Positions 3,025 through 50,410 of a stretch of 64,000 nt of DNA are shown here, piece after piece. The DNA lies in NCBI GenBank assembly GCA_044370375.1, contig JBILVQ010000001.1, forward strand, positions 173 to 64,172, written 5' to 3'. Within the stretch, counting starts at the first letter, position 1. Each line of letters begins with the position of its first letter. The translations under genes and the position numbers were made by a program. The stretch is from Bacteroidia bacterium (GTDB lineage Bacteria; Bacteroidota; Bacteroidia; UBA4408). Below the pieces are notes generated by a model, which was not told where the DNA came from, did no database searches, and saw nothing but the letters and a program-made list of their open reading frames with translations.

Positions 3025-3980
3025 AGAATGAATTTAGAATTTTCAATGATGATTTTCATTCCGTCTTCAAAAGGCAGCATTGGCCGGTCCAAAAGAGTTT
3101 TCATTTTCGAAATATCCGGCTTTCTTCTTGTCATGTCTCCTTCTTCCAGAGCCGACATGTGTGTGATTTTTGAAGAAGAATTGGTTAAGGAAATTATTTT
3201 TTTTGCCAGCTCTAAGATGGTAACTTCCTCATCACCGCCAATGTTTACAACATCATTAACATACATGTTCCTTTCGAAAGCGTTCACAGTAGCGGCAATG
3301 TTGTCATCTATAAAACAGAAAGTCCTTGTTTGAGAGCCATCTCCATAAACGGTAATCGGTTTGTCTTTTAAGGCCTTTGCCAGAAATTTGCTTACAACAA
3401 AATCTTTACTTTGTTTGGGCCCATAGGTGTTGAAAAATCTGAAAACAGTATATTCTAGTCCGTATTCAACCTTGTACGACTTTAAAAATGCTTCGCCTAC
3501 ATTTTTTACAATCGCATAAGGAAGTCTAGAATTTAATGGTGTTGTATGTTCATTTTGAGGAAATTCTACTGGTTCACCATAAACCTCAGAACTTGAGGAA
3601 TAGTAAATTCTTTTAACCCCTGAATTTTTTGAAAGCGTGCAAATATTTTTTAAGCCAATAATATCGTTTAGCACCATTACTGGGTTTTTCAAAGTTCTTT
3701 GCACCCCAACCAATGCAGCATAGTGAAATACATAGTCGAAGCGAAAGGCATAAAAAATACCGGAGATATCATCAAAATTATTCACATCTGCTTTGATAAA
3801 GCGAATGTTGTTATGCTTAGAAACAGGAACTTTTTCTATTTCTCCGGTAATTAGATTGTCGGCAATTACTACGTAATTGTTGGGGTTTTCGGCAAGTTTT
3901 TCGGCCAGTGCGCTGGCAATAAACCCCGCTCCACCGGTTACAAGGATGCTGGTCATGTGTGGTTGAATACTTTGTGGCAT
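3021..3980 (-). CDS. NAD-dependent epimerase/dehydratase (extended SDR family, of the UDP-glucuronate decarboxylase or UDP-sugar 4-epimerase type)
   Basis: An N-terminal Rossmann motif (LVTGGAGFIASALAEKL) is followed by catalytic S..Y...K elements (YSSSSEVYG, YAIVKNVGE). Its start overlaps the rfbA stop by 1 nt (TAATG). Confidence 0.8.
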   Translation of the reverse strand: MPQSIQPHMTSILVTGGAGFIASALAEKLAENPNNYVVIADNLITGEIEKVPVSKHNNIRFIKADVNNFDDISGIFYAFRFDYVFHYAALVGVQRTLKNPVMVLNDIIGLKNICTLSKNSGVKRIYYSSSSEVYGEPVEFPQNEHTTPLNSRLPYAIVKNVGEAFLKSYKVEYGLEYTVFRFFNTYGPKQSKDFVVSKFLAKALKDKPITVYGDGSQTRTFCFIDDNIAATVNAFERNMYVNDVVNIGGDEEVTILELAKKIISLTNSSSKITHMSALEEGDMTRRKPDISKMKTLLDRPMLPFEDGMKIIIENSKFIL

Positions 3981-4837
3981 TAGGGTAAATTAATTAGGTA
4001 GGAGCCATAACCGCTTTTCAGCAAAGGTTCGGCCAATTCAATGAGTTTTTGTTTGGTGATAAAGCCTTGTCGGTAGGCTACTTCTTCAATACATCCTATT
4101 TTCAAACCTTGTCGCTCTTCAATCACCTGAACAAACTGACCGGCCTGCATCAAAGAGGAAAATGTTCCGGTATCAAGCCAAGCAGTACCTCTGTCCAATA
4201 TTCCAACTTTAAGTTTACCCTGCGAAAGATAGTTCTTATTTACATCGGTGATTTCGTATTCTCCGCGGGCACTTGGCTTCAAATTTTTGGCTATTTCCAC
4301 CACTGTGTTGTCATAAAAATACAAACCGGGCACGGCAAAATTCGATTTGGGGACCTTGGGCTTTTCCTCAATGGAGATGGCCCTGTTGTTTTGATCAAAC
4401 TCCACCACCCCATATCTTTCAGGGTCTGAAACATGATAGGCGAAAACTACACCACCTTCAGGATTGTTGTTTTCTGCAAGAAGTTTTTGTAAACCGCTTC
4501 CGTAGAAAATATTATCACCTAAAATTAACGCAACCTTTTCGGTCCCGATAAACTGTTCACCAATAACAAATGCCTGTGCAAGTCCGTTGGGTGTTGGCTG
4601 TTCGGCATATTCAAAGTTGCAGCCAAGGTTTTTTCCATCACCCAGGAGTCGTTTAAAATGCGGTAAATCATGGGGAGTCGAAATAATCAGGATTTCATTG
4701 ATTCCGGCCATCATTAACACTGAGAGCGGATAATAAATCATAGGTTTATCATAAACAGGCATTAACTGTTTACTCACCGCAAGCGTAAGAGGATGCAACC
4801 TCGTTCCGGATCCACCGGCTAAAATAATTCCTTTCAT
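3980..4837 (-). CDS. rfbA: Glucose-1-phosphate thymidylyltransferase
   Basis: The canonical N-terminus [18 protein letters not shown] is present, with RmlA-like sequence throughout. The ORF track extends to 4903, but the conserved start is the internal Met, whose ATG ends at 4837. The 22-aa upstream extension is probably not translated. Confidence 0.85.
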
Positions 4838-39921: not shown

Positions 39922-42900
39922 ATGTCAAAATCTTATCCTGAATACAAGCAACTCAACCTTCCGGCAATTACAGCCGAAATCCTGAGTTTTTGGGAACAGC
40001 ATGATATATTTGGTGAGTCTGTGCGGTTGCGGGAGGGAAACCCATCTTTTGTTTTCTATGAAGGTCCTCCTTCCGCCAATGGAATGCCCGGAATCCATCA
40101 TGTGATGGCACGCACCATCAAAGATATTTTTTGTCGCTATCAAACCATTCTGGGTAAACAGGTTCACCGAAAGGCCGGTTGGGATACCCATGGTCTTCCT
40201 ATTGAATTGGCGGTTGAAAAAACACTTGGCATTACCAAGGAAGACATCGGCAAATCAATTTCTGTTGAAGATTACAACAAAGCTTGCCGCACTGAGGTAA
40301 TGAAGTACACCGATCAGTGGGAGGAACTTACCCGCCAAATGGGGTACTGGGTTGATATGAAAGACCCTTACATAACCTACGACAATAAGTATATTGAGTC
40401 GGTTTGGTGGTTGTTAGGTCGTTTGTTTGACAAAGGCCTGCTCTACAAGGGTTATACCATTCAGCCCTATTCTCCTGCCGCAGGTACAGGCCTTTCATCG
40501 CACGAGTTAAATCAACCCGGATGTTACCGTCAGGTCAAAGACAGGACCGCAGTGGCTATGTTTGAGCTTATTCAGGATGACTCTTCAAAAAAATTATGGT
40601 TAGAAGGTGTTCAAGAGGTTTTTTTCCTGGCTTGGACAACCACGCCATGGACCCTTCCCTCCAATACTGCCCTCGCTGTTGGCCCCGAAATTCAATATGT
40701 TTCCGTTCATACCCTTCATCCCTTTACCGGAAAAGAAGTGGTGGTCATTTTGGCCGCACAATTATTGAACAAGTATTTCTCTAAAACCAATGAGGGGCTC
40801 CCGTTTGCTGATTATAAAATGGGTTCAAAGGATATTCCCTTTAAAGTGGTACAGGAAATCAAAGGGAGTGATTTAAAGGGCCTTTCTTACCACCAACTAT
40901 TACCATTTGCACAACCGGATTCAGGAGATGCTTTTAAGGTAATAGCCGGTGATTTTGTAACAACTGAAGATGGAACCGGTATTGTGCACATTGCTCCTAG
41001 CTTTGGTGCCGATGACTTTAAAGTGGCCAAACAAAATGGTATCGGTTCTCTAACGCTGGTTGATAAACGCGGAAGGTTTTTACCCGTAGTTTCCGACGGA
41101 ATTTTTCTTTACGGAAATGAATATGTTAAGGAAGCTTATCTCAATGAAGATGAGAAGCAATCCGAATTCCTTAAGCAAAAACAAATTCTTGAATCAGCCG
41201 GAAAAATTAAGGAATTAAAAAGTTATTTAAGTGTTGATGAACGAATTGTTCTGAAGTTGCAGGAAGAGGGCAAGCTTTTTAAAAAAGAAAGCTACGAACA
41301 CTCTTACCCGCACTGTTGGAGAACAGATAAACCGGTTCTTTACTATCCGCTCGATTCCTGGTTTGTAAAGATTCCTGAGGTTCGCCAGCGCATGGTTGAA
41401 CTCAACAAAACCATTCATTGGAAACCTGAATCAACCGGAACCGGCCGTTTTGGCAATTGGCTCGAAAACGCCAACGATTGGAATTTGTCCCGTTCACGTT
41501 TTTGGGGCATCCCTTTGCCTATTTGGCGAACCGAAGACGGTAGTGAATCAATTTGTATTTCTTCTGCAGAACAACTGCAGCATGAAATAAAGAAGTCTAT
41601 AGAAAGGGGAATAATGAAGACCAATCCATTGCATGATTTTGTGCCCGGAGATTTCTCTTCTTCCAATTATGCATCCTTCGATTTACATAAACCCTATGTA
41701 GATGATATTGTCCTTGTAGCTCCTTCCGGAAAACCCATGTACCGGGAAGCCGATTTAATTGATGTTTGGTTCGATTCAGGCGCAATGCCTTATGCACAAG
41801 TGCATTATCCTTTCGAGAATAAAGAAAGCGTAGATTCAGGAAAAGTTTTTCCCGCCGATTTTATTGCCGAAGGGGTTGACCAAACCAGAGGATGGTTTTA
41901 TACCCTGCATGCCATTGCAACACTTTGCTTCGATTCTGTTGCCTACAGAAATGTAATTTCTAACGGACTGGTTTTGGATAAAAACGGTAATAAAATGAGC
42001 AAACGCCTTGGCAATGCCGTTGACCCGTTTAGTACAATGTCCAAATATGGTACAGATGCCACCCGATGGTATATGATTACCAATGCTCAGCCTTGGGATA
42101 ATCTTAAGTTTGATGAAGAAGGTATTACCGAAGTACAAAGAAAATTCTTTGGTACGCTCTACAATACCTATGGCTTTTTTGCATTGTATGCGAATGTAGA
42201 TCAGTTTGTTTTTGATCCTTCTGCCCTCATCCCGGTTCAGCAAAGAACCGAATTAGATCGTTGGATTCTAAGTCGCTTAAACCACCTGGTGAAAGAGGTG
42301 AGGCTTGCCCTTGACGATTTTGAGCCAACAAAGGCAGCAAGGATGATTGAAGAATTCGTTGATCAACATCTTTCTAACTGGTATGTGCGTTTGGCCAGAA
42401 AAAGGTTTTGGAAAGGAGAAATGTCTTCCGATAAGTTAGCGGCCTACCAAACCCTTTTTGAAGCACTCATCACCTGCAGTCAGTTAATTTCTCCCTTTGC
42501 TCCGTTTTTTGCCGATTGGCTTTACCGAAACTTGAATAATCCTGCTGCTCATTCCTTAAACGGAAAGCATGCTGTTTTGGGTTATTCTTCTGTTCACCTT
42601 AGTTTGCTTCCTGTTGCCAATGAGTCGCAAATTGATTTGAATCTTGAGCGCAAAATGGACCTGGCGCAGAAAGTTTCGAGTCTTATTCTTTCTATTCGTA
42701 AAAAAGAGAACATAAGGGTTCGGCAACCACTCAATAAAATAAGAATTCCTTTGGTTCACCCGCAACTCGAAAAGGATATTTCTGAGGTTAAAGAGTTAAT
42801 CCTTTCTGAGGTGAATATCAAGGAAATTGAGTTTGTGAGTAGCGAAAATTCAGGGATGGTAAAAAACCTGAAATTGAATTTTAAAACCCTGGGAAAGAAA

Positions 42901-43392
42901 TTCGGAAAACAAATGAAGGCCATTCAGGAGTTTGCCTTGCAGAACAGCAACGAAGTAATCAGTGCTATTGAAAACCACGGGGAGTTTTCAATGAATCTGC
43001 CCGATGGAGCGGTAATTCTTTTGCCTGAGGACGTAGAAATAATTCCTGTTGACATCCCGGGTTGGAAAGTGCAAAACAGTGGTAGCCTTACCGTTGCCCT
43101 GGATGTAACCTTAACCCCAAAGCTGGTTCGGGAGGGAATTGCCCGCGAATTGGTAAACAGAATTCAAAATTTAAGAAAAGAAAAAGGGTTGAATGTTATC
43201 GACCTGATCAATGTGCAATTGGTTGACCAGCCTGTCTTGAGAGAGGCGGTAACCGAGAATTTGGAATATATTTGCACCCAAACCCTGACCAAAAATCTTC
43301 ATTGGGTTTCTTCTTCAGAAAACCCTGATGGTGTAGCGGTAGAATTAGATGAAACTGTTTCTACCATGATTTCTATAAATAAAGTAAGTTGA
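39922..43392 (+). CDS. ileS: Isoleucine--tRNA ligase (type 2)
   Basis: The HIGH-region variant is PSANGMPGIHHVM and the KMSKS motif is KMSKRLGN. Editing-domain and anticodon-binding regions are present. The length is 1156 aa. Confidence 0.9.
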   Translation: MSKSYPEYKQLNLPAITAEILSFWEQHDIFGESVRLREGNPSFVFYEGPPSANGMPGIHHVMARTIKDIFCRYQTILGKQVHRKAGWDTHGLPIELAVEKTLGITKEDIGKSISVEDYNKACRTEVMKYTDQWEELTRQMGYWVDMKDPYITYDNKYIESVWWLLGRLFDKGLLYKGYTIQPYSPAAGTGLSSHELNQPGCYRQVKDRTAVAMFELIQDDSSKKLWLEGVQEVFFLAWTTTPWTLPSNTALAVGPEIQYVSVHTLHPFTGKEVVVILAAQLLNKYFSKTNEGLPFADYKMGSKDIPFKVVQEIKGSDLKGLSYHQLLPFAQPDSGDAFKVIAGDFVTTEDGTGIVHIAPSFGADDFKVAKQNGIGSLTLVDKRGRFLPVVSDGIFLYGNEYVKEAYLNEDEKQSEFLKQKQILESAGKIKELKSYLSVDERIVLKLQEEGKLFKKESYEHSYPHCWRTDKPVLYYPLDSWFVKIPEVRQRMVELNKTIHWKPESTGTGRFGNWLENANDWNLSRSRFWGIPLPIWRTEDGSESICISSAEQLQHEIKKSIERGIMKTNPLHDFVPGDFSSSNYASFDLHKPYVDDIVLVAPSGKPMYREADLIDVWFDSGAMPYAQVHYPFENKESVDSGKVFPADFIAEGVDQTRGWFYTLHAIATLCFDSVAYRNVISNGLVLDKNGNKMSKRLGNAVDPFSTMSKYGTDATRWYMITNAQPWDNLKFDEEGITEVQRKFFGTLYNTYGFFALYANVDQFVFDPSALIPVQQRTELDRWILSRLNHLVKEVRLALDDFEPTKAARMIEEFVDQHLSNWYVRLARKRFWKGEMSSDKLAAYQTLFEALITCSQLISPFAPFFADWLYRNLNNPAAHSLNGKHAVLGYSSVHLSLLPVANESQIDLNLERKMDLAQKVSSLILSIRKKENIRVRQPLNKIRIPLVHPQLEKDISEVKELILSEVNIKEIEFVSSENSGMVKNLKLNFKTLGKKFGKQMKAIQEFALQNSNEVISAIENHGEFSMNLPDGAVILLPEDVEIIPVDIPGWKVQNSGSLTVALDVTLTPKLVREGIARELVNRIQNLRKEKGLNVIDLINVQLVDQPVLREAVTENLEYICTQTLTKNLHWVSSSENPDGVAVELDETVSTMISINKVS

Positions 43393-43411
43393 ACCAAAGT
43401 GATTAAATGCC

Positions 43412-44455
43412 ATGGCAAAAAAAATTGCAAACAAAAAGGGAAAGCCGGCAAAGGATAACAAAAAGAAACCTGTAGCTGCTGCAAAATCTTCCAAAAAGCC
43501 GGCTCCAAAACCAGCAAAGAAGGCGGAAACTAAACCTGCCAAAAAAGCGGTTTCAAAGCCCGCAAAAAAGGCTGCACCTGCTAAGAAGGCTGCTGTAAAG
43601 AAGGCGGCACCTGTAAAGAAAACCGCTGTAAAAGCAAAAGTTGCCAAAACGGTAACCAAAGCCTCCAAGACAGCAAAACCTGCTCCCAAGCCGGTAAAAA
43701 AAGCAGTTAAGCCTGTAGTGAAGGCAGTTTCAAAAGCCAAGGCTACTGCCGCAAGTCCCAAAAAAGCCAAGGCCGATTTGCTCGCTAAACCGGCACAGAA
43801 AATAGCCGCTAAAGCTGTAAGTAAGCCTGCTTCTAAAAAGGAGGAGAAACCCGTTGCTAAAGCCGTGGTTTCGGTAAAACCCGAAAAGGTAATGAAACCT
43901 GCTCCCCAACCAAGTCCCAAACCTTCTGTGAACCCACGCAAAACCGAAGTTGCTAAAGTAAAGGCGCAACCAAAGAAAGAAGAGTCTATGGTGGATGAAG
44001 ATGAAGACGATAAGCGTCCAATGCCTGCTCCGGTTGTTCCAAAGAAGGAAGAAGTGGTGGTGGATAGAAGTGGTTTCTTAACCAGAACAAAGTTTACAGA
44101 TGCTGAATTGTCTGAATTTAGAGATCTGATAAAAAAGAAGTTGGAATTCGCCATCAAGGATTACGAGTTGTTAAAGGATACCTTGTCGCATCGCGATAAC
44201 AATGGAACAGATGATACTTCTCCAACTTTTAAATTGCTCGAAGATGGATCAGAGGTTCTTTCAAAAGAGGAAACAACACAATTAGCGGTTCGTCAACAAA
44301 AGTACATTCAGTCGCTTGAAAATGCGCTTATTAGGATAGAGAACAAGACCTATGGCATTTGCAGGGCAACCGGCCAAATGATTAGCAAGGAACGTTTAAG
44401 AAGTGTACCCCATGCAACCCTGAGCATTCAGGCCAAATTGGATCAAAGCAATTAA
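43412..44455 (+). CDS. DksA/TraR-family protein with a long Lys/Ala/Pro-rich (histone H1-like) N-terminal extension and a degenerate zinc finger
   Basis: The C-terminal ~110 aa (FTDAELSEFRDLIKKKLEFA...NALIRIENKTYGICRATGQMISKERLRSVPHATLSIQ) aligns with the DksA/TraR coiled-coil plus C4 region, but only one Cys is present. The N-terminal ~220 aa are AKKA/KPAK-rich low complexity. It sits in the ileS to lspA position. Confidence 0.65.
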   Translation: MAKKIANKKGKPAKDNKKKPVAAAKSSKKPAPKPAKKAETKPAKKAVSKPAKKAAPAKKAAVKKAAPVKKTAVKAKVAKTVTKASKTAKPAPKPVKKAVKPVVKAVSKAKATAASPKKAKADLLAKPAQKIAAKAVSKPASKKEEKPVAKAVVSVKPEKVMKPAPQPSPKPSVNPRKTEVAKVKAQPKKEESMVDEDEDDKRPMPAPVVPKKEEVVVDRSGFLTRTKFTDAELSEFRDLIKKKLEFAIKDYELLKDTLSHRDNNGTDDTSPTFKLLEDGSEVLSKEETTQLAVRQQKYIQSLENALIRIENKTYGICRATGQMISKERLRSVPHATLSIQAKLDQSN

Positions 44456-44470
44456 CTATTTTCCCTTTCA

Positions 44471-44511
44471 AATGCATTGCCTCATCGCTAAGGTGAGGCA
44501 TGCATTTTTTT
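44471..44511 (+). terminator. Rho-independent terminator after the DksA/TraR-like gene
   Basis: A hairpin of ATGCATTGCCTCATC, a gctaa loop and GGTGAGGCATGCAT (about 13 bp with one bulge) is followed by a T-run of 7 or more. It lies immediately before the lspA start. Confidence 0.5.
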
Positions 44512-44512
44512 T

Positions 44513-45193
44513 ATGAAGCCCTATTTTAAACCTTTTTTGCTTGTTTTTTTGGTGCTGCTTTTCGACCAAGTCCTTAAAATTTGGATCAAAACAAACATGT
44601 ACCTTGGACAAGAATTTGTTATTTTTCCCGATTGGTTCATTATCCATTTTACAGAAAACAATGGAATGGCCTTTGGAATGGAATTAGCCGGTTCGGCCGG
44701 AAAGTTACTCTTGAGCATTTTTAGGGTGATAGCCATTGGAGGCATTGGTTACGGCCTTTATTATGTGGTAAAAAAGAAATTCCATCCGGGATTTATTACC
44801 TGCGTTGCTCTGGTTTTTGCAGGCGCATTGGGCAACTTGATTGACAGCGCTTTCTATGGCGTTATCTTTGGGGATAGCTATTCAGGGGTAGCTGAGGTAT
44901 TCCCAAAGGAAGGTGGCTATGCCGGTTATCTCCACGGCAAGGTGGTGGATATGCTCTATTTTCCCTTAATAGAGGGCCATTTTCCTCAATGGTTTCCAAT
45001 TTGGGCTGGTGAAGAGTTTATTTTCTTCAGGCCTGTATTTAATATTGCGGATATGTCTATTTCTACCGGAATGGGTCTGTTCATCTTGTTTCAGAACAGA
45101 TATTTTCCTGATCAAAAAATTAAAGAAGAGGAAAAATCTACGGATGCAGGTGCAACCGAAAACAATGACGAAACGGTAGAAAAACCCCTTTAA
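44513..45193 (+). CDS. lspA: Lipoprotein signal peptidase (signal peptidase II)
   Basis: There are four TM segments, with conserved Asn/Asp residues (FTENNGMAFG, NLIDSAFYG, FNIADMSI). It occupies the canonical position downstream of ileS. Confidence 0.8.
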   Translation: MKPYFKPFLLVFLVLLFDQVLKIWIKTNMYLGQEFVIFPDWFIIHFTENNGMAFGMELAGSAGKLLLSIFRVIAIGGIGYGLYYVVKKKFHPGFITCVALVFAGALGNLIDSAFYGVIFGDSYSGVAEVFPKEGGYAGYLHGKVVDMLYFPLIEGHFPQWFPIWAGEEFIFFRPVFNIADMSISTGMGLFILFQNRYFPDQKIKEEEKSTDAGATENNDETVEKPL

Positions 45194-45594
45194 GAGGTTC
45201 TTTTTCGCTGGCGGTCTAATACTTTTTTACGCTTGTCATCAGTAGAAGAGCTTTTGAAACTCAGCCACAAAGCAATTACCACAAGAATAATTACCATTAA
45301 TATCATGAACAGAGAGGTCCAGGTACTTTCGTTGGTCTTTACTATATCCTTGGCCTCACTGAAAACCCCTTTGATGGTTTTGTTTACCCCTGCGGCTGTA
45401 TCGGCTGACGCGGTGTCTGCTACGGCTTCCTGTGCAAATGAAATTGCCCCCGTAAATAATCCCTGAAGAAGGATTAAAATACCTGAAAGTGTCCATTTTG
45501 TTGGGATTTCCCTCAGATTTAATTCCGGAATTCGCATACCTGTCATAACTTTATTTTTAGAAAAACGCTTAAAAGTACAACATATTATCGACAA
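45190..45594 (-). CDS. Hypothetical small membrane protein
   Basis: It has a signal-like hydrophobic segment (LSGILILLQGLFTGAISFAQE), a C-terminal TM segment (LFMILMVIILVVIALWLSF) and a basic tail. It converges on lspA with a 4-nt overlap. The start codon is uncertain (alternatives are MTGMRIP and MRIPEL). Confidence 0.4.
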   Translation of the reverse strand: MSIICCTFKRFSKNKVMTGMRIPELNLREIPTKWTLSGILILLQGLFTGAISFAQEAVADTASADTAAGVNKTIKGVFSEAKDIVKTNESTWTSLFMILMVIILVVIALWLSFKSSSTDDKRKKVLDRQRKRTS

Positions 45595-47485: not shown

Positions 47486-50410
47486 ATGCCCGAAAGCACA
47501 GAAAATATCAGGTTAAGTAAAGCCGCCAAGGAATTAAACGTTGGGATTGCCACCATCCTCGAATTCGCTCAAAAGAAAGGATTAAGCGTGGATTCTAATC
47601 CCAATGGGAAAATTTCCATGCAGATTTTCGAGGTTCTTGAAAAAGAATTCTCAAAAGACAAACAGGCAAAGGAGGAATCTAAGCAAAAGTCATTGTCAAC
47701 ACGCCAGAAAAAGGAGACAATTACCATTGACGAGAAAACCCCTACACCGCACAGCCACGATAAGAAAGAGGCAGAGGAAATTTTAATCAAGGATAACAAT
47801 ATCCCCTTTCAACGTGAGGTGGAAGTGCCAAAGGTTGAAGAAGTGGTTGTTGTGCCTGAGCCAGAGAGCATTCCGGAACCTCCGGAAATTATCCCCGAAC
47901 CTGTGGTTGTTGAAGCTTCTGTACCTCCTGAAGTTCCGGTACCCGCTGCCCCTGAAAATGCAGAACCTGAGGTAATAAAACCTAGAATTGAAGAAGCCAT
48001 CAATCCTAAAGTTGTTGGCAAAATAGATCTCGAATCCCTTTCCGGCAAAGGAAAATCAGGCAAGAAATCCATCAAAAAGGAAGAAGCCGAAGTGCCTGCC
48101 AAAACGAAAGCCAAGGTTAAAGAGGAACCCAAAACCGAGCCTGTTCAGGAAGTGCCGGCAACTCCTGCAGTGGTGCCGCCGGCCGAAGTTGAAACACCCA
48201 AACCCGAAGCTCCGGAAAAAGTTGAACCCGAGCACCATGTTACCCAGTACGGAAAATTAGAGGGCCCAACCATTCTTGGCAAAATGGTTTTGCCGGTGAA
48301 GGAAGAGAAAAAGAAGCCCGTTGCTTCTAGTTCCGGAAATGAACAAGGGAAAAAGAAAAGAAAACGCATTAAAAAAGGCCCACTGGGTGCCGAAGGTGGC
48401 GCTCCTGACCAAAATCAACAGAACCAGCAAGGTCAGGCAAATGCCGGTCAACAACAAAGAAGACCTAATCAAAGACCTAACCAGGGTCGTCCGCTTCCTC
48501 CCGTTAAAAAAGAACTTACCCAAGAGGAAATTGATGCCCAGATAAAAGAAACCCTTGCAAGATTAAGCGGTACAGGAAAATCGTCCTCCTCTAAATACAG
48601 AAGACAAAAACGTGAATTGGCCAGTCAGCAAGTACAGGACGATCTACAGCAATTAGAAGAAGGCAAAAGAGTTCTTCACGTAACAGAATTTATTTCTGCC
48701 AATGAGTTGGCCAGTTTAATGAACGTTCCGGTTAACAACGTTATCTCAACTTGTATGAGTCTGGGTATGTTTGTTTCTATCAACCAGCGTTTAAGTGCCG
48801 AAATTATTTCCATTGTTGCCGAAGAATTTCATTTCAAAGTTGAGTTTGTTTCTGCAGAGGCCACTGTATCGGCCAAAGAAGAAGCCGACCGACCTGAGGA
48901 TCTTACTCCACGACCACCCATTGTTACCGTGATGGGTCACGTTGACCATGGTAAAACCTCTTTGCTGGACCATATCAGAAAAACCAATGTTATTGGTGGA
49001 GAGGCAGGAGGAATTACCCAGCACATTGGTGCCTATGGGGTGAAATTGGATAGCGGAAAAAGAATTACTTTCTTGGATACCCCCGGACACGAGGCCTTTA
49101 CAGCTATGCGTGCAAGGGGTGCTCAGGTAACAGATATAGTAATCATTGTAGTGGCTGCTGATGATAATGTAATGCCTCAAACCAGAGAGGCCATTAACCA
49201 CGCTCAGGCAGCGGGTGTTCCCATTATCATTGCCATCAATAAAATTGATAAACCCGGAGCAAATCCTGACAAAATCAGAGAGGAGCTTTCTGCAATGAAC
49301 ATTTTGGTGGAAGAATGGGGAGGAAAATACCAGTGTCAGGAAATTTCAGCTAAAAAAGGCACCAACATGGATGTTCTCCTAGAAAAAGTTCTTCTTGAAG
49401 CCGAAATGCTTGATTTAAAGGCCAATGCTAAAAAGAATGCCATTGGTACCGTGATAGAATCTTCATTAGATAAAGGACGTGGATATGTAACCACTGTACT
49501 TATTCAATCCGGAACACTAAAAATGGGTGATACCATGCTGGCCGGTTGTTACAGCGGTAAGGTAAAAGCAATGTTCAACGAAAGAGGAATCACCGTAAAA
49601 GAGGCCGGACCTTCAACACCTGTGTTGTTGCTCGGACTTTCAGGTGCTCCTACCGCAGGAGATACCTTTAAAGTAATGGATGATGAAAGGGAAGCCAAAG
49701 AAATTGCAGCCAAAAGGCTTCAGTTATTGCGTGAGCAAGGTTACCGAACACAAAAACATATTACGTTGGATGAAATTGGCCGAAGATTGGCCATTGGCGA
49801 CTTTAAGGAACTAAACATCATTGTAAAAGGAGATGTGGATGGTTCTGTTGAAGCGTTAACCGATTCATTGTTGAAATTAACCACCGAAAAGGTTCAGGTA
49901 AATGTGATTCACAAATCGGTTGGACAGGTAACGGAATCCGATGTTTTGCTGGCTTCTGCCTCTAATGCCATTATTGTAGCATTCCAGGTTCGTCCGTCTG
50001 CCTCAGCAAGAAAACTGGCCGAGCAGGAACAAATCGATATACGGATGTACTCTGTAATCTACGATGCCATCAATGAGGTGAAATCGGCCATGGAGGGAAT
50101 GTTGGCACCTACTTTTGAGGAAAAAATCACCTGTAACATCGAAATTAGGGATGTTTTCAAGATTTCTAAGGTGGGAACCATTGCAGGATGTATGGTTTTG
50201 GACGGAAAAGTCAACCGAAACACAAAAGTCAGGGTAATCCGCGATGGAATCGTGGTTTATACGGGCGAACTGGGCTCACTGAAAAGGTTTAAGGACGATG
50301 TGAAGGAAGTTGCCTCCGGATATGAGTGCGGTTTGAACATCAATAATTTCAACGATATCAAGGTTGGAGACATCATAGAAGGCTACGAAATGGTAGAAAT
50401 GAAAAGATAA
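47486..50410 (+). CDS. infB: Translation initiation factor IF-2
   Basis: The G-domain is [21 protein letters not shown]...[30 protein letters not shown]...NKIDK. The N-terminal ~380 aa are low-complexity P/E/K-rich. The length is 974 aa. Confidence 0.9.

Follow-up and report, generated by a model that had tools for sequence, protein, structure and literature searches.

The gene that lies between ileS and lspA in the window analysed here (the whole stretch of DNA under study, 64,000 nucleotides) encodes a 347-residue protein in which a long polycationic tail, rich in lysine, alanine and proline and predicted to be disordered, precedes a DksA-family domain bearing a zinc-independent, C1-type finger motif. 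The reading that we favour, with moderate confidence, is that this Bacteroidota C1-type DksA with an H1-like tail is an independently evolved counterpart of DdbA from Streptomyces, that is, a secondary-channel factor held on the nucleoid. In the stringent response the chief protein partners are factors of the DksA type, about which next to nothing is known in Bacteroidota. The features of the locus are as follows.

39922..43392, + strand: ileS, encoding isoleucyl-tRNA synthetase, the conserved upstream neighbour (PF00133 at 1.6e-116, Anticodon_1, DUF5915).
43412..44455, + strand: coding sequence of the tail-bearing C1-type DksA-family protein, with an ATG start and 347 aa plus stop.
43412..43978, + strand: residues 1-189, K/A/P(V)-rich polycationic low-complexity tract with AKKA, KPAKK, KPA and KPV motifs, delimited by composition and predicted by AlphaFold2 to be disordered.
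43979..44011, + strand: residues 190-200, acidic patch EESMVDEDEDD separating the tail from the DksA domain, with 8 D/E in 12 residues (KEESMVDEDEDD).
44012..44098, + strand: residues 201-229, linker and N-terminal segment of the conserved domain, conservation in the alignment beginning at about residue 226 (TKFTDAELSEF).
44099..44341, + strand: residues 230-310, coiled-coil hairpin predicted by AlphaFold2 (helices 230-258 and 285-310), whose highly conserved tip segment GTDDTSPTFKLLEDGSEVLSKEE holds DxxE/DxL (D278, E281, L283).
44342..44452, + strand: residues 311-347, globular 'finger' region and C-terminal helix, matching PF01258 and aligning to 6PTG, 4IJJ and 1TJL.
44360-44434, + strand: C1-type motif C317-R-A-T320 ... 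S338-I-Q-A341, within the finger region.
44470..44512, + strand: intrinsic terminator, a 16-bp hairpin at 44470-44507 with a U8 run at 44505-44512, abutting the ATG of lspA.
44513..45193, + strand: lspA, encoding lipoprotein signal peptidase II, the conserved downstream neighbour (PF01252 at 3.1e-34; NF011369 at 271.8 bits against a cutoff of 200).

The reading frame starts 19 nt past the ileS stop codon and ends 57 nt before lspA. An initial sequence-only reading of this DNA had placed the gene in a conserved ileS to lspA position followed by a strong terminator, and both observations are upheld. In addition to the profile matches of the two neighbours, wherever the flanking DNA on that side is long enough, ileS is found upstream at 56 of 75 related loci and lspA downstream at 63 of 72. 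The terminator hairpin has a dG of -22.8 kcal/mol (z = -6.2), none of 200 shuffled sequences folding as well, and its U8 run ends one base ahead of the lspA ATG; a comparable hairpin and T-run are present at the related loci L001, L003, L004, L006 and L009-L012. A search of the whole 64-kb window against Rfam gave no match, so no leader or riboswitch accounts for the terminator. A scan for sigma-70-type promoters around the gene found none, a result of little weight since the scan was not built for Bacteroidota promoters.

By profile and predicted fold, the C-terminal domain is a member of the DksA family, as the same reading had proposed. Residues 313-339 match PF01258 with 27.0 bits, above the gathering score of 24.9, and the DksA models TIGR02420, NF033459 and TIGR02890 align to residues 232-342, though with scores well under the equivalog cutoffs set for C4-type DksA (42.7 against 115.5 for TIGR02420, 40.4 against 105 for NF033459, and 26.8 against 289 for NF008045). 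The matches in the PDB obtained with phmmer are to DksA from Chlamydia trachomatis (6PTG, 6.8e-7), DksA2 from P. aeruginosa (4IJJ, 6.1e-5) and DksA from E. coli (1TJL, 5.3e-3), and also to 2KQ9. AlphaFold2 predicts with confidence two helices that form a hairpin (residues 230-258 and 285-310, pLDDT 84-96), followed by a beta-hairpin and helices of lower confidence, and the model thus has the DksA/TraR architecture of an antiparallel two-helix coiled coil, then a small finger domain and a C-terminal helix. The top five Foldseek matches in the PDB are all DksA or DksA2 (probability 0.94-1.00). Conservation in the family is highest at the tip segment GTDDTSPTFKLLEDGS(D/E)VLSKEE, which is invariant or nearly so. 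[quoted passage not shown]

It is less certain that such a domain responds to ppGpp in the usual way. In E. coli DksA, R91, K94, K98, R129 and K139 contact ppGpp at site 2. An alignment to the E. coli protein, whose register is the one seen in the 1TJL match, shows no variation at the positions of R91, K94, R125 and K139; K98 is replaced there by Ser or Asn and R129 by Val, and the loss of a basic residue at these two positions makes synergy with ppGpp uncertain. One might suppose, then, that the C-terminal domain has the DksA fold but is no canonical, ppGpp-dependent secondary-channel regulator, having instead a TraR-like, ppGpp-independent or otherwise diverged role, with the tail serving as a spacer or to raise local concentration. 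The insertion at the coiled-coil tip, some eight residues that E. coli DksA lacks, and the scores below the equivalog cutoffs would fit such a role, as would the failure of the Chlamydia C1-type DksA to complement E. coli (PMC9126822). Strict conservation of the tip acids and of the equivalents of R91, K94 and K139 speaks against it, as does the R. sphaeroides C1-type DksA, which is reported to work with ppGpp (PMC4010833; cited in PMC9126822). We regard a diverged role of this kind as quite unlikely, and prefer to see in the domain a secondary-channel factor of the DksA type.

The sequence-only reading had described the zinc finger as decayed, with only one of the four canonical cysteines remaining, and as more extreme than that of DksA2. 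The count is right, in that C317 is the sole Cys of the protein and the four finger positions read C-T-S-A (YGICRATG...LSIQAK), with the spacing C317-RA-T320-x17-S338-IQ-A341. The CxxC-x17-CxxC finger of canonical C4-type DksA is therefore lacking. What is present, CxxT-x17-SxxA, is a recognised zinc-independent C1-type DksA motif (PMC9126822). More generally, in C1/C2-type proteins the motif is CxxS/T-x17-C/S/TxxA, the first Cys alone being retained, and the DksA fold is adopted without zinc (PMC9126822); the Chlamydia C1 protein in particular has a DksA-like fold without metal (PMC9126822). Among the 120 closest homologues the first position is Cys in 120/120, the second is Thr (once Ser) and the fourth is Ala in 119/120 (once Gly), the finger being C-T-S-A or C-T-A-A in 113. 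At genomic loci the picture is the same: Cys and Ser/Thr occupy the first two positions at 79/80 loci, mostly as C-T-S-A, and Ala the fourth, also at 79/80. The C1 finger extends to stand-alone proteins of about 125 aa from Bacteroides, Phocaeicola and Prevotellaceae, some of which have C-T-C-A, the pattern of DksA2. Because the motif matches the C1 definition and is near-invariant among relatives, the protein is best described as a standard C1-type DksA; the finger is neither decayed in this gene, since the same motif is essentially invariant across the Bacteroidota orthologues retrieved, stand-alone forms included, nor more extreme than that of DksA2.

The remainder of the protein is of a quite different character. 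Of residues 1-215, 29% are Lys, 21% Ala, 13.5% Pro and 12% Val, so that K, A and P together make up 64%, in agreement with the tract of about 220 residues rich in these amino acids that had been noted in the 347-aa product; the net charge is +48, with 63 Lys, 2 Arg and no aromatic residue. A scan of the window found no other tract of this kind. AlphaFold2 gives residues 1-225 no secondary structure (pLDDT below about 55). Tandem Repeats Finder reports only a weak array of 2-3 copies, so the tract is cryptic low complexity, and its origin in a recent tandem-repeat expansion was rejected. The likeness to H1-like or AlgP-like tails that had been proposed holds for composition and fails for family membership. 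No Pfam family matched residues 1-215 at E <= 10, and when the tail alone (residues 1-191) was searched against a database of 5.8 billion proteins, none of the 8000 candidates sharing words with it reached E <= 0.001, with the consequence that no homology-based assignment of the tail is possible. Among relatives the composition of the tail is kept and its sequence is not. The protein has no more than one S/TPKK motif, and the tail of one relative (P0102) does exceed the gathering threshold of HC2 (PF07382; 42.3 against 40). As used here, 'H1-like' denotes a compositional resemblance of these sequences and no demonstrable homology. A recurring feature that the sequence-only reading had passed over is the acidic patch between tail and domain. 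Similar patches are seen at L001-L006, L009-L012, L081 and L082, for example VDLDDD at L001, DMDMDDD at L004, runs of 10-11 D/E at L010-L012, KKEENDDMDYY at L081 and KKEEHDDADYY at L082.

It might be argued that this tract is not part of the protein at all: that the true product is a stand-alone DksA-like protein of about 125-135 aa, and the upstream frame a compositional by-product or an assembly artefact. PGAP does give the relatives P0005, P0010 and P0016 as proteins of 124-138 aa. An antisense ORF of 270 aa (43345..44157) is likewise held open across the low-complexity tract, and one public assembly breaks within it. The antisense ORF, however, is the usual mirror image of Lys/Ala codons. 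Inspection of the short annotations shows that P0016 (128 aa) is a suffix of a 355-aa ORF at L003, with its annotated start on ATT; P0010 (124 aa) is a suffix of a 327-aa ORF, with its start on ATA; and P0005 (138 aa) is a suffix of a 320-aa ORF. For P0005 and P0010, the annotation is blank over the 555-620 nt that separate ileS from the called start, although this DNA codes for a "MAKK..." tail. The broken assembly is represented by P0001 (132 aa), which is 100% identical to the C-terminus of the present protein; the idea that a gene caller had picked an internal GTG start was rejected for this entry, a contig-edge fragment (the contig is 3.3 kb long) from an assembly that broke inside the tract.

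Several further lines of evidence favour translation. Across the tract, the gene's own frame has no stop codon, while the other two frames of the + strand have 15 and 13. In pairwise DNA alignments of related loci, 81 of the 85 indels in the tract are multiples of three and the remaining four form two adjacent compensating pairs, which indicates that the tail is translated. At most related loci a long ORF begins with a conserved "MAKK" ATG 10-21 nt past the ileS stop codon and runs in frame into the DksA domain. Equivalent in-frame tracts recur across numerous independent assemblies, some of them on contigs longer than 1 Mb, and this excludes an assembly artefact, the outcome that the sequence-only reading had named as fatal to its proposal. 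The evidence of these comparisons says that the tail is translated, genuine and under selection, and a product confined to the DksA-like domain is extremely improbable. The annotation error is systematic (NCBI calls shortened to 124-138 aa, in two cases from an ATT or ATA codon); it hides the architecture and would mislead comparative studies.

On the loci and clusters surveyed, the fusion is the rule in the source clade and is widespread beyond it, rather than a peculiarity of one gene; the design is a common one among uncultured Bacteroidia. The closest loci in species-representative genomes (L001-L017) have C-terminal domains 67-79% identical to that described here, and at 15 of the 17 the ORF is complete and bears a K/A/P-rich extension of 160-280 aa; L005 and L007 run into the ends of their contigs, the tract being visible in L007 all the same. 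Nearly all of the closest genomic relatives bear such a tail. The gap from ileS to the MAKK start codon is 10-21 nt at most of these 17 loci and 69-181 nt at five. MAKK tails with the same 10-21 nt gap occur also at L081 and L082, and an extension at L041, L056 and L063, while orthologues of 66% identity or less from named Bacteroidales and Flavobacteriales are mostly of about 125 aa. When 1.84 billion cluster representatives were scanned exhaustively with HMMER, 3220 matched at E <= 1e-3 and 129 at E <= 1e-30. Among the best 150 of the 3220 matched representatives (50%-identity clusters), 78 have 60 aa or more ahead of the domain, and in 65 of those 78 K+R amounts to at least 20%. Because several short close relatives are truncated NCBI calls, such counts of tail-bearing proteins are underestimates. 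Parsimony on tail presence over a neighbour-joining tree of the domain requires at least 25 changes, but this figure was not accepted at face value as a number of gains and losses, because many of the 'tail-less' entries are truncated annotations or fragments and a domain of about 120 aa resolves poorly.

The account of this architecture that we favour is that the resident zinc-independent C1-type DksA of Bacteroidota gained in this lineage a disordered polycationic N-terminal tail of about 190 aa, similar in composition to the C-terminal domain of histone H1, together with a short acidic patch. By analogy, the tail may be expected to bind DNA and the protein to bind RNA polymerase (RNAP). The C-terminal domain would insert its coiled coil into the secondary channel of RNAP, as DksA does, by means of the conserved acidic tip, while the tail would bind DNA non-specifically by charge and so place the factor on the nucleoid. 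Such placement would link DNA compaction or occupancy to the control of transcription initiation. More speculatively, the acidic patch might fold back on the tail and tune its affinity for DNA.

A tail of this kind could also be directed at some other polyanion than chromosomal DNA, such as polyphosphate granules, RNA or ribosomes, in which case the DksA domain might be sequestered or released as polyphosphate or RNA levels change during starvation. K/A/P tracts bind polyanions with little specificity, and the tail is conserved in composition only, not in sequence. AlgP, an H1-like, KPAA-rich protein of Pseudomonas, is reported to be tied to the spacing of polyphosphate granules (PMC9239181), and lysine-rich tracts are reported to interact with polyphosphate (PMC12077175). 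On the other hand, the tail of DdbA, the sole characterised protein of such architecture, binds and condenses DNA (PMC3643593), the partner domain here would act on RNAP, which itself works on DNA, and nothing in the locus is connected with polyphosphate. We therefore think a non-DNA target unlikely, and retain the nucleoid-held secondary-channel factor as the preferred interpretation.

A bolder extension of that interpretation can be framed, although we consider it distinctly doubtful. In a large and mostly uncultured branch of the Bacteroidia, the only DksA-type factor might be permanently built into chromatin by an H1-like disordered tail (net charge +40 to +80) and gated by the acidic patch. 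It might there be a major nucleoid-associated protein that organises RNAP-nucleoid condensates, or couples compaction to initiation, perhaps without ppGpp. If true, this would amount to a convergent re-invention of the solution found in Streptomyces DdbA, largely invisible in databases as a result of truncation by annotation pipelines.

Both components of the protein, and even the architecture as exemplified by DdbA, were already known. What is new is the Bacteroidota version, with its C1 finger, longer tail, acidic patch, clade-wide distribution and concealment by annotation; a literature search found no description of an H1-like/DksA fusion from this phylum. Among systems already known, the stand-alone TraR/DksA-family proteins of Bacteroidota (about 125 aa; Bacteroides, Phocaeicola, Prevotellaceae, Marinilabilia, Flavobacteriales) are orthologous to the C-terminal domain at 60-66% identity and share the C-T-S-A (sometimes C-T-C-A) finger and the ileS-X-lspA synteny, but have no N-terminal extension; in the Bacteroides and Phocaeicola examples the gap from ileS to the start codon is 31-171 nt. 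The best PDB matches by sequence, 6PTG and 4IJJ, are zinc-independent C1/C2-type DksA proteins, a class to which the DksA of R. sphaeroides also belongs and with which the one-Cys motif is shared. The C1/C2-type proteins of Chlamydia, P. aeruginosa and R. sphaeroides are, however, stand-alone proteins of 130-140 aa without a polycationic tail, and the Bacteroidota family differs from them in the insertion of about eight residues in the tip region and in having DxxDxL in place of DxxDxA. In Chlamydia, northern-blot data suggest that dksA is transcribed jointly with lspA (PMC9126822). As for the tail, its K/A/P-rich, repetitive, disordered and polyanion-binding composition is shared with Chlamydia Hc1/Hc2 (PF07382), Pseudomonas AlgP and the C-terminal tails of actinobacterial HupS/Hlp, whereas it has no profile match to the H1-like/HC2 (PF07382) or linker-histone families.

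The nearest precedent is DdbA (SCO2075) of Streptomyces coelicolor, a bifunctional nucleoid-associated protein with H1-like and DksA-like parts (PMC3643593). In vitro its H1-like N-terminal domain binds DNA and condenses it, and genetically the protein has a DksA-like activity, overexpression suppressing relA phenotypes (PMC3643593). Phenotypes are described for it in the condensation of the nucleoid and in supercoiling under osmotic stress, besides the suppression of relA defects (PMC3643593). The correspondence with the protein described here, an H1-like tail joined to a DksA-like domain, is a match in architecture only. DdbA keeps a four-Cys zinc finger (PMC3643593) where the Bacteroidota protein has the C1 type, C-T-S-A; it has five (S/T)(A/T)AKK repeats in an N-terminal domain that was expressed as a 138-aa protein (PMC3643593), as against a 215-aa extension with an acidic patch and 0 occurrences of that pentapeptide; and it differs in phylum and in locus, the present gene occupying the ileS-lspA slot. 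Since the C-terminal domain shares its locus, 60-66% identity and C-T-S-A with stand-alone Bacteroidota orthologues, while DdbA keeps four Cys, the Bacteroidota fusion, when set against the published description of DdbA, most likely arose independently, on a resident gene. Such apparent convergence argues that holding a secondary-channel factor on the nucleoid is a design of general use.

Close relatives of the dksA-like gene have been given PGAP (NCBI) gene calls shortened to 124–138 aa, and the annotated starts fall as follows in four genomic loci and their database protein entries:

L003, about 3320–4387: dksA-like relative; the start annotated for P0016 is on ATT
L081, 1455–2417: dksA-like relative; the start annotated for P0005 is on an internal ATG
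L082, 1392–2375: dksA-like relative; the start annotated for P0010 is on ATA
L002: dksA-like relative; the call for P0032 begins at an internal GTG

With the starts of P0005 and P0010 so placed, 555–620 nt downstream of ileS are left without annotation in L081 and L082, and this stretch codes, in frame, for the Lys/Ala/Pro-rich tail beginning MAKK. Assembly has also intervened. A contig of 3363 bp from a public metagenome (ERZ21845800, the source of P0001) matches the C-terminal domain, lspA, rimP and nusA of the window identically, and it starts at base 2 of the gene: the Lys/Ala/Pro tract is the point at which short-read assembly of this contig broke. Such breakage within the tract is a further reason for the under-representation of the tail–DksA fusion in databases.

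The tract and its surroundings hold the following additional features:

43345–44157, (-) strand: antisense open reading frame of 270 aa, rich in F, A, G and L, covering the Lys/Ala/Pro tract
43979–44011, residues 190–200: acidic patch EESMVDEDEDD, separating the basic tail from the DksA domain
45190–45594, (-) strand: open reading frame of 134 aa, convergent with lspA and overlapping its stop by 4 nt
47486–50410, (+) strand: infB (IF-2)

The antisense frame was rejected as a gene, being the mirror image of Lys and Ala codons. The acidic patch recurs in most close relatives, and might serve as an intramolecular counter-charge to the basic tail. The 134-aa frame matched no Pfam family at threshold; its C-terminus is basic, and a hydrophobic stretch in it resembles a single transmembrane segment. 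The ERZ21845800 contig has a called gene of 118 aa, thus similar in size, in the same position. As read from its translation, IF-2 has a long low-complexity N-terminal region of its own (approximately residues 95–330), P/E/V/K-rich and Q/N-rich. A search of both strands of the whole window (1–64000) against Rfam gave no family at gathering score.

Within 44470–44515, the strong terminator closes with a U8 run whose last base is 44512. The ATG of lspA lies at 44513, which leaves lspA with virtually no 5' leader beyond the terminator itself. Judged from this arrangement, lspA would have to be expressed either by read-through or from a promoter that overlaps the dksA-like gene. A comparable hairpin and T-run lie 3' of the gene in L001, L003, L004, L006 and L009–L012, but are absent from L013–L017 and the Bacteroides loci.
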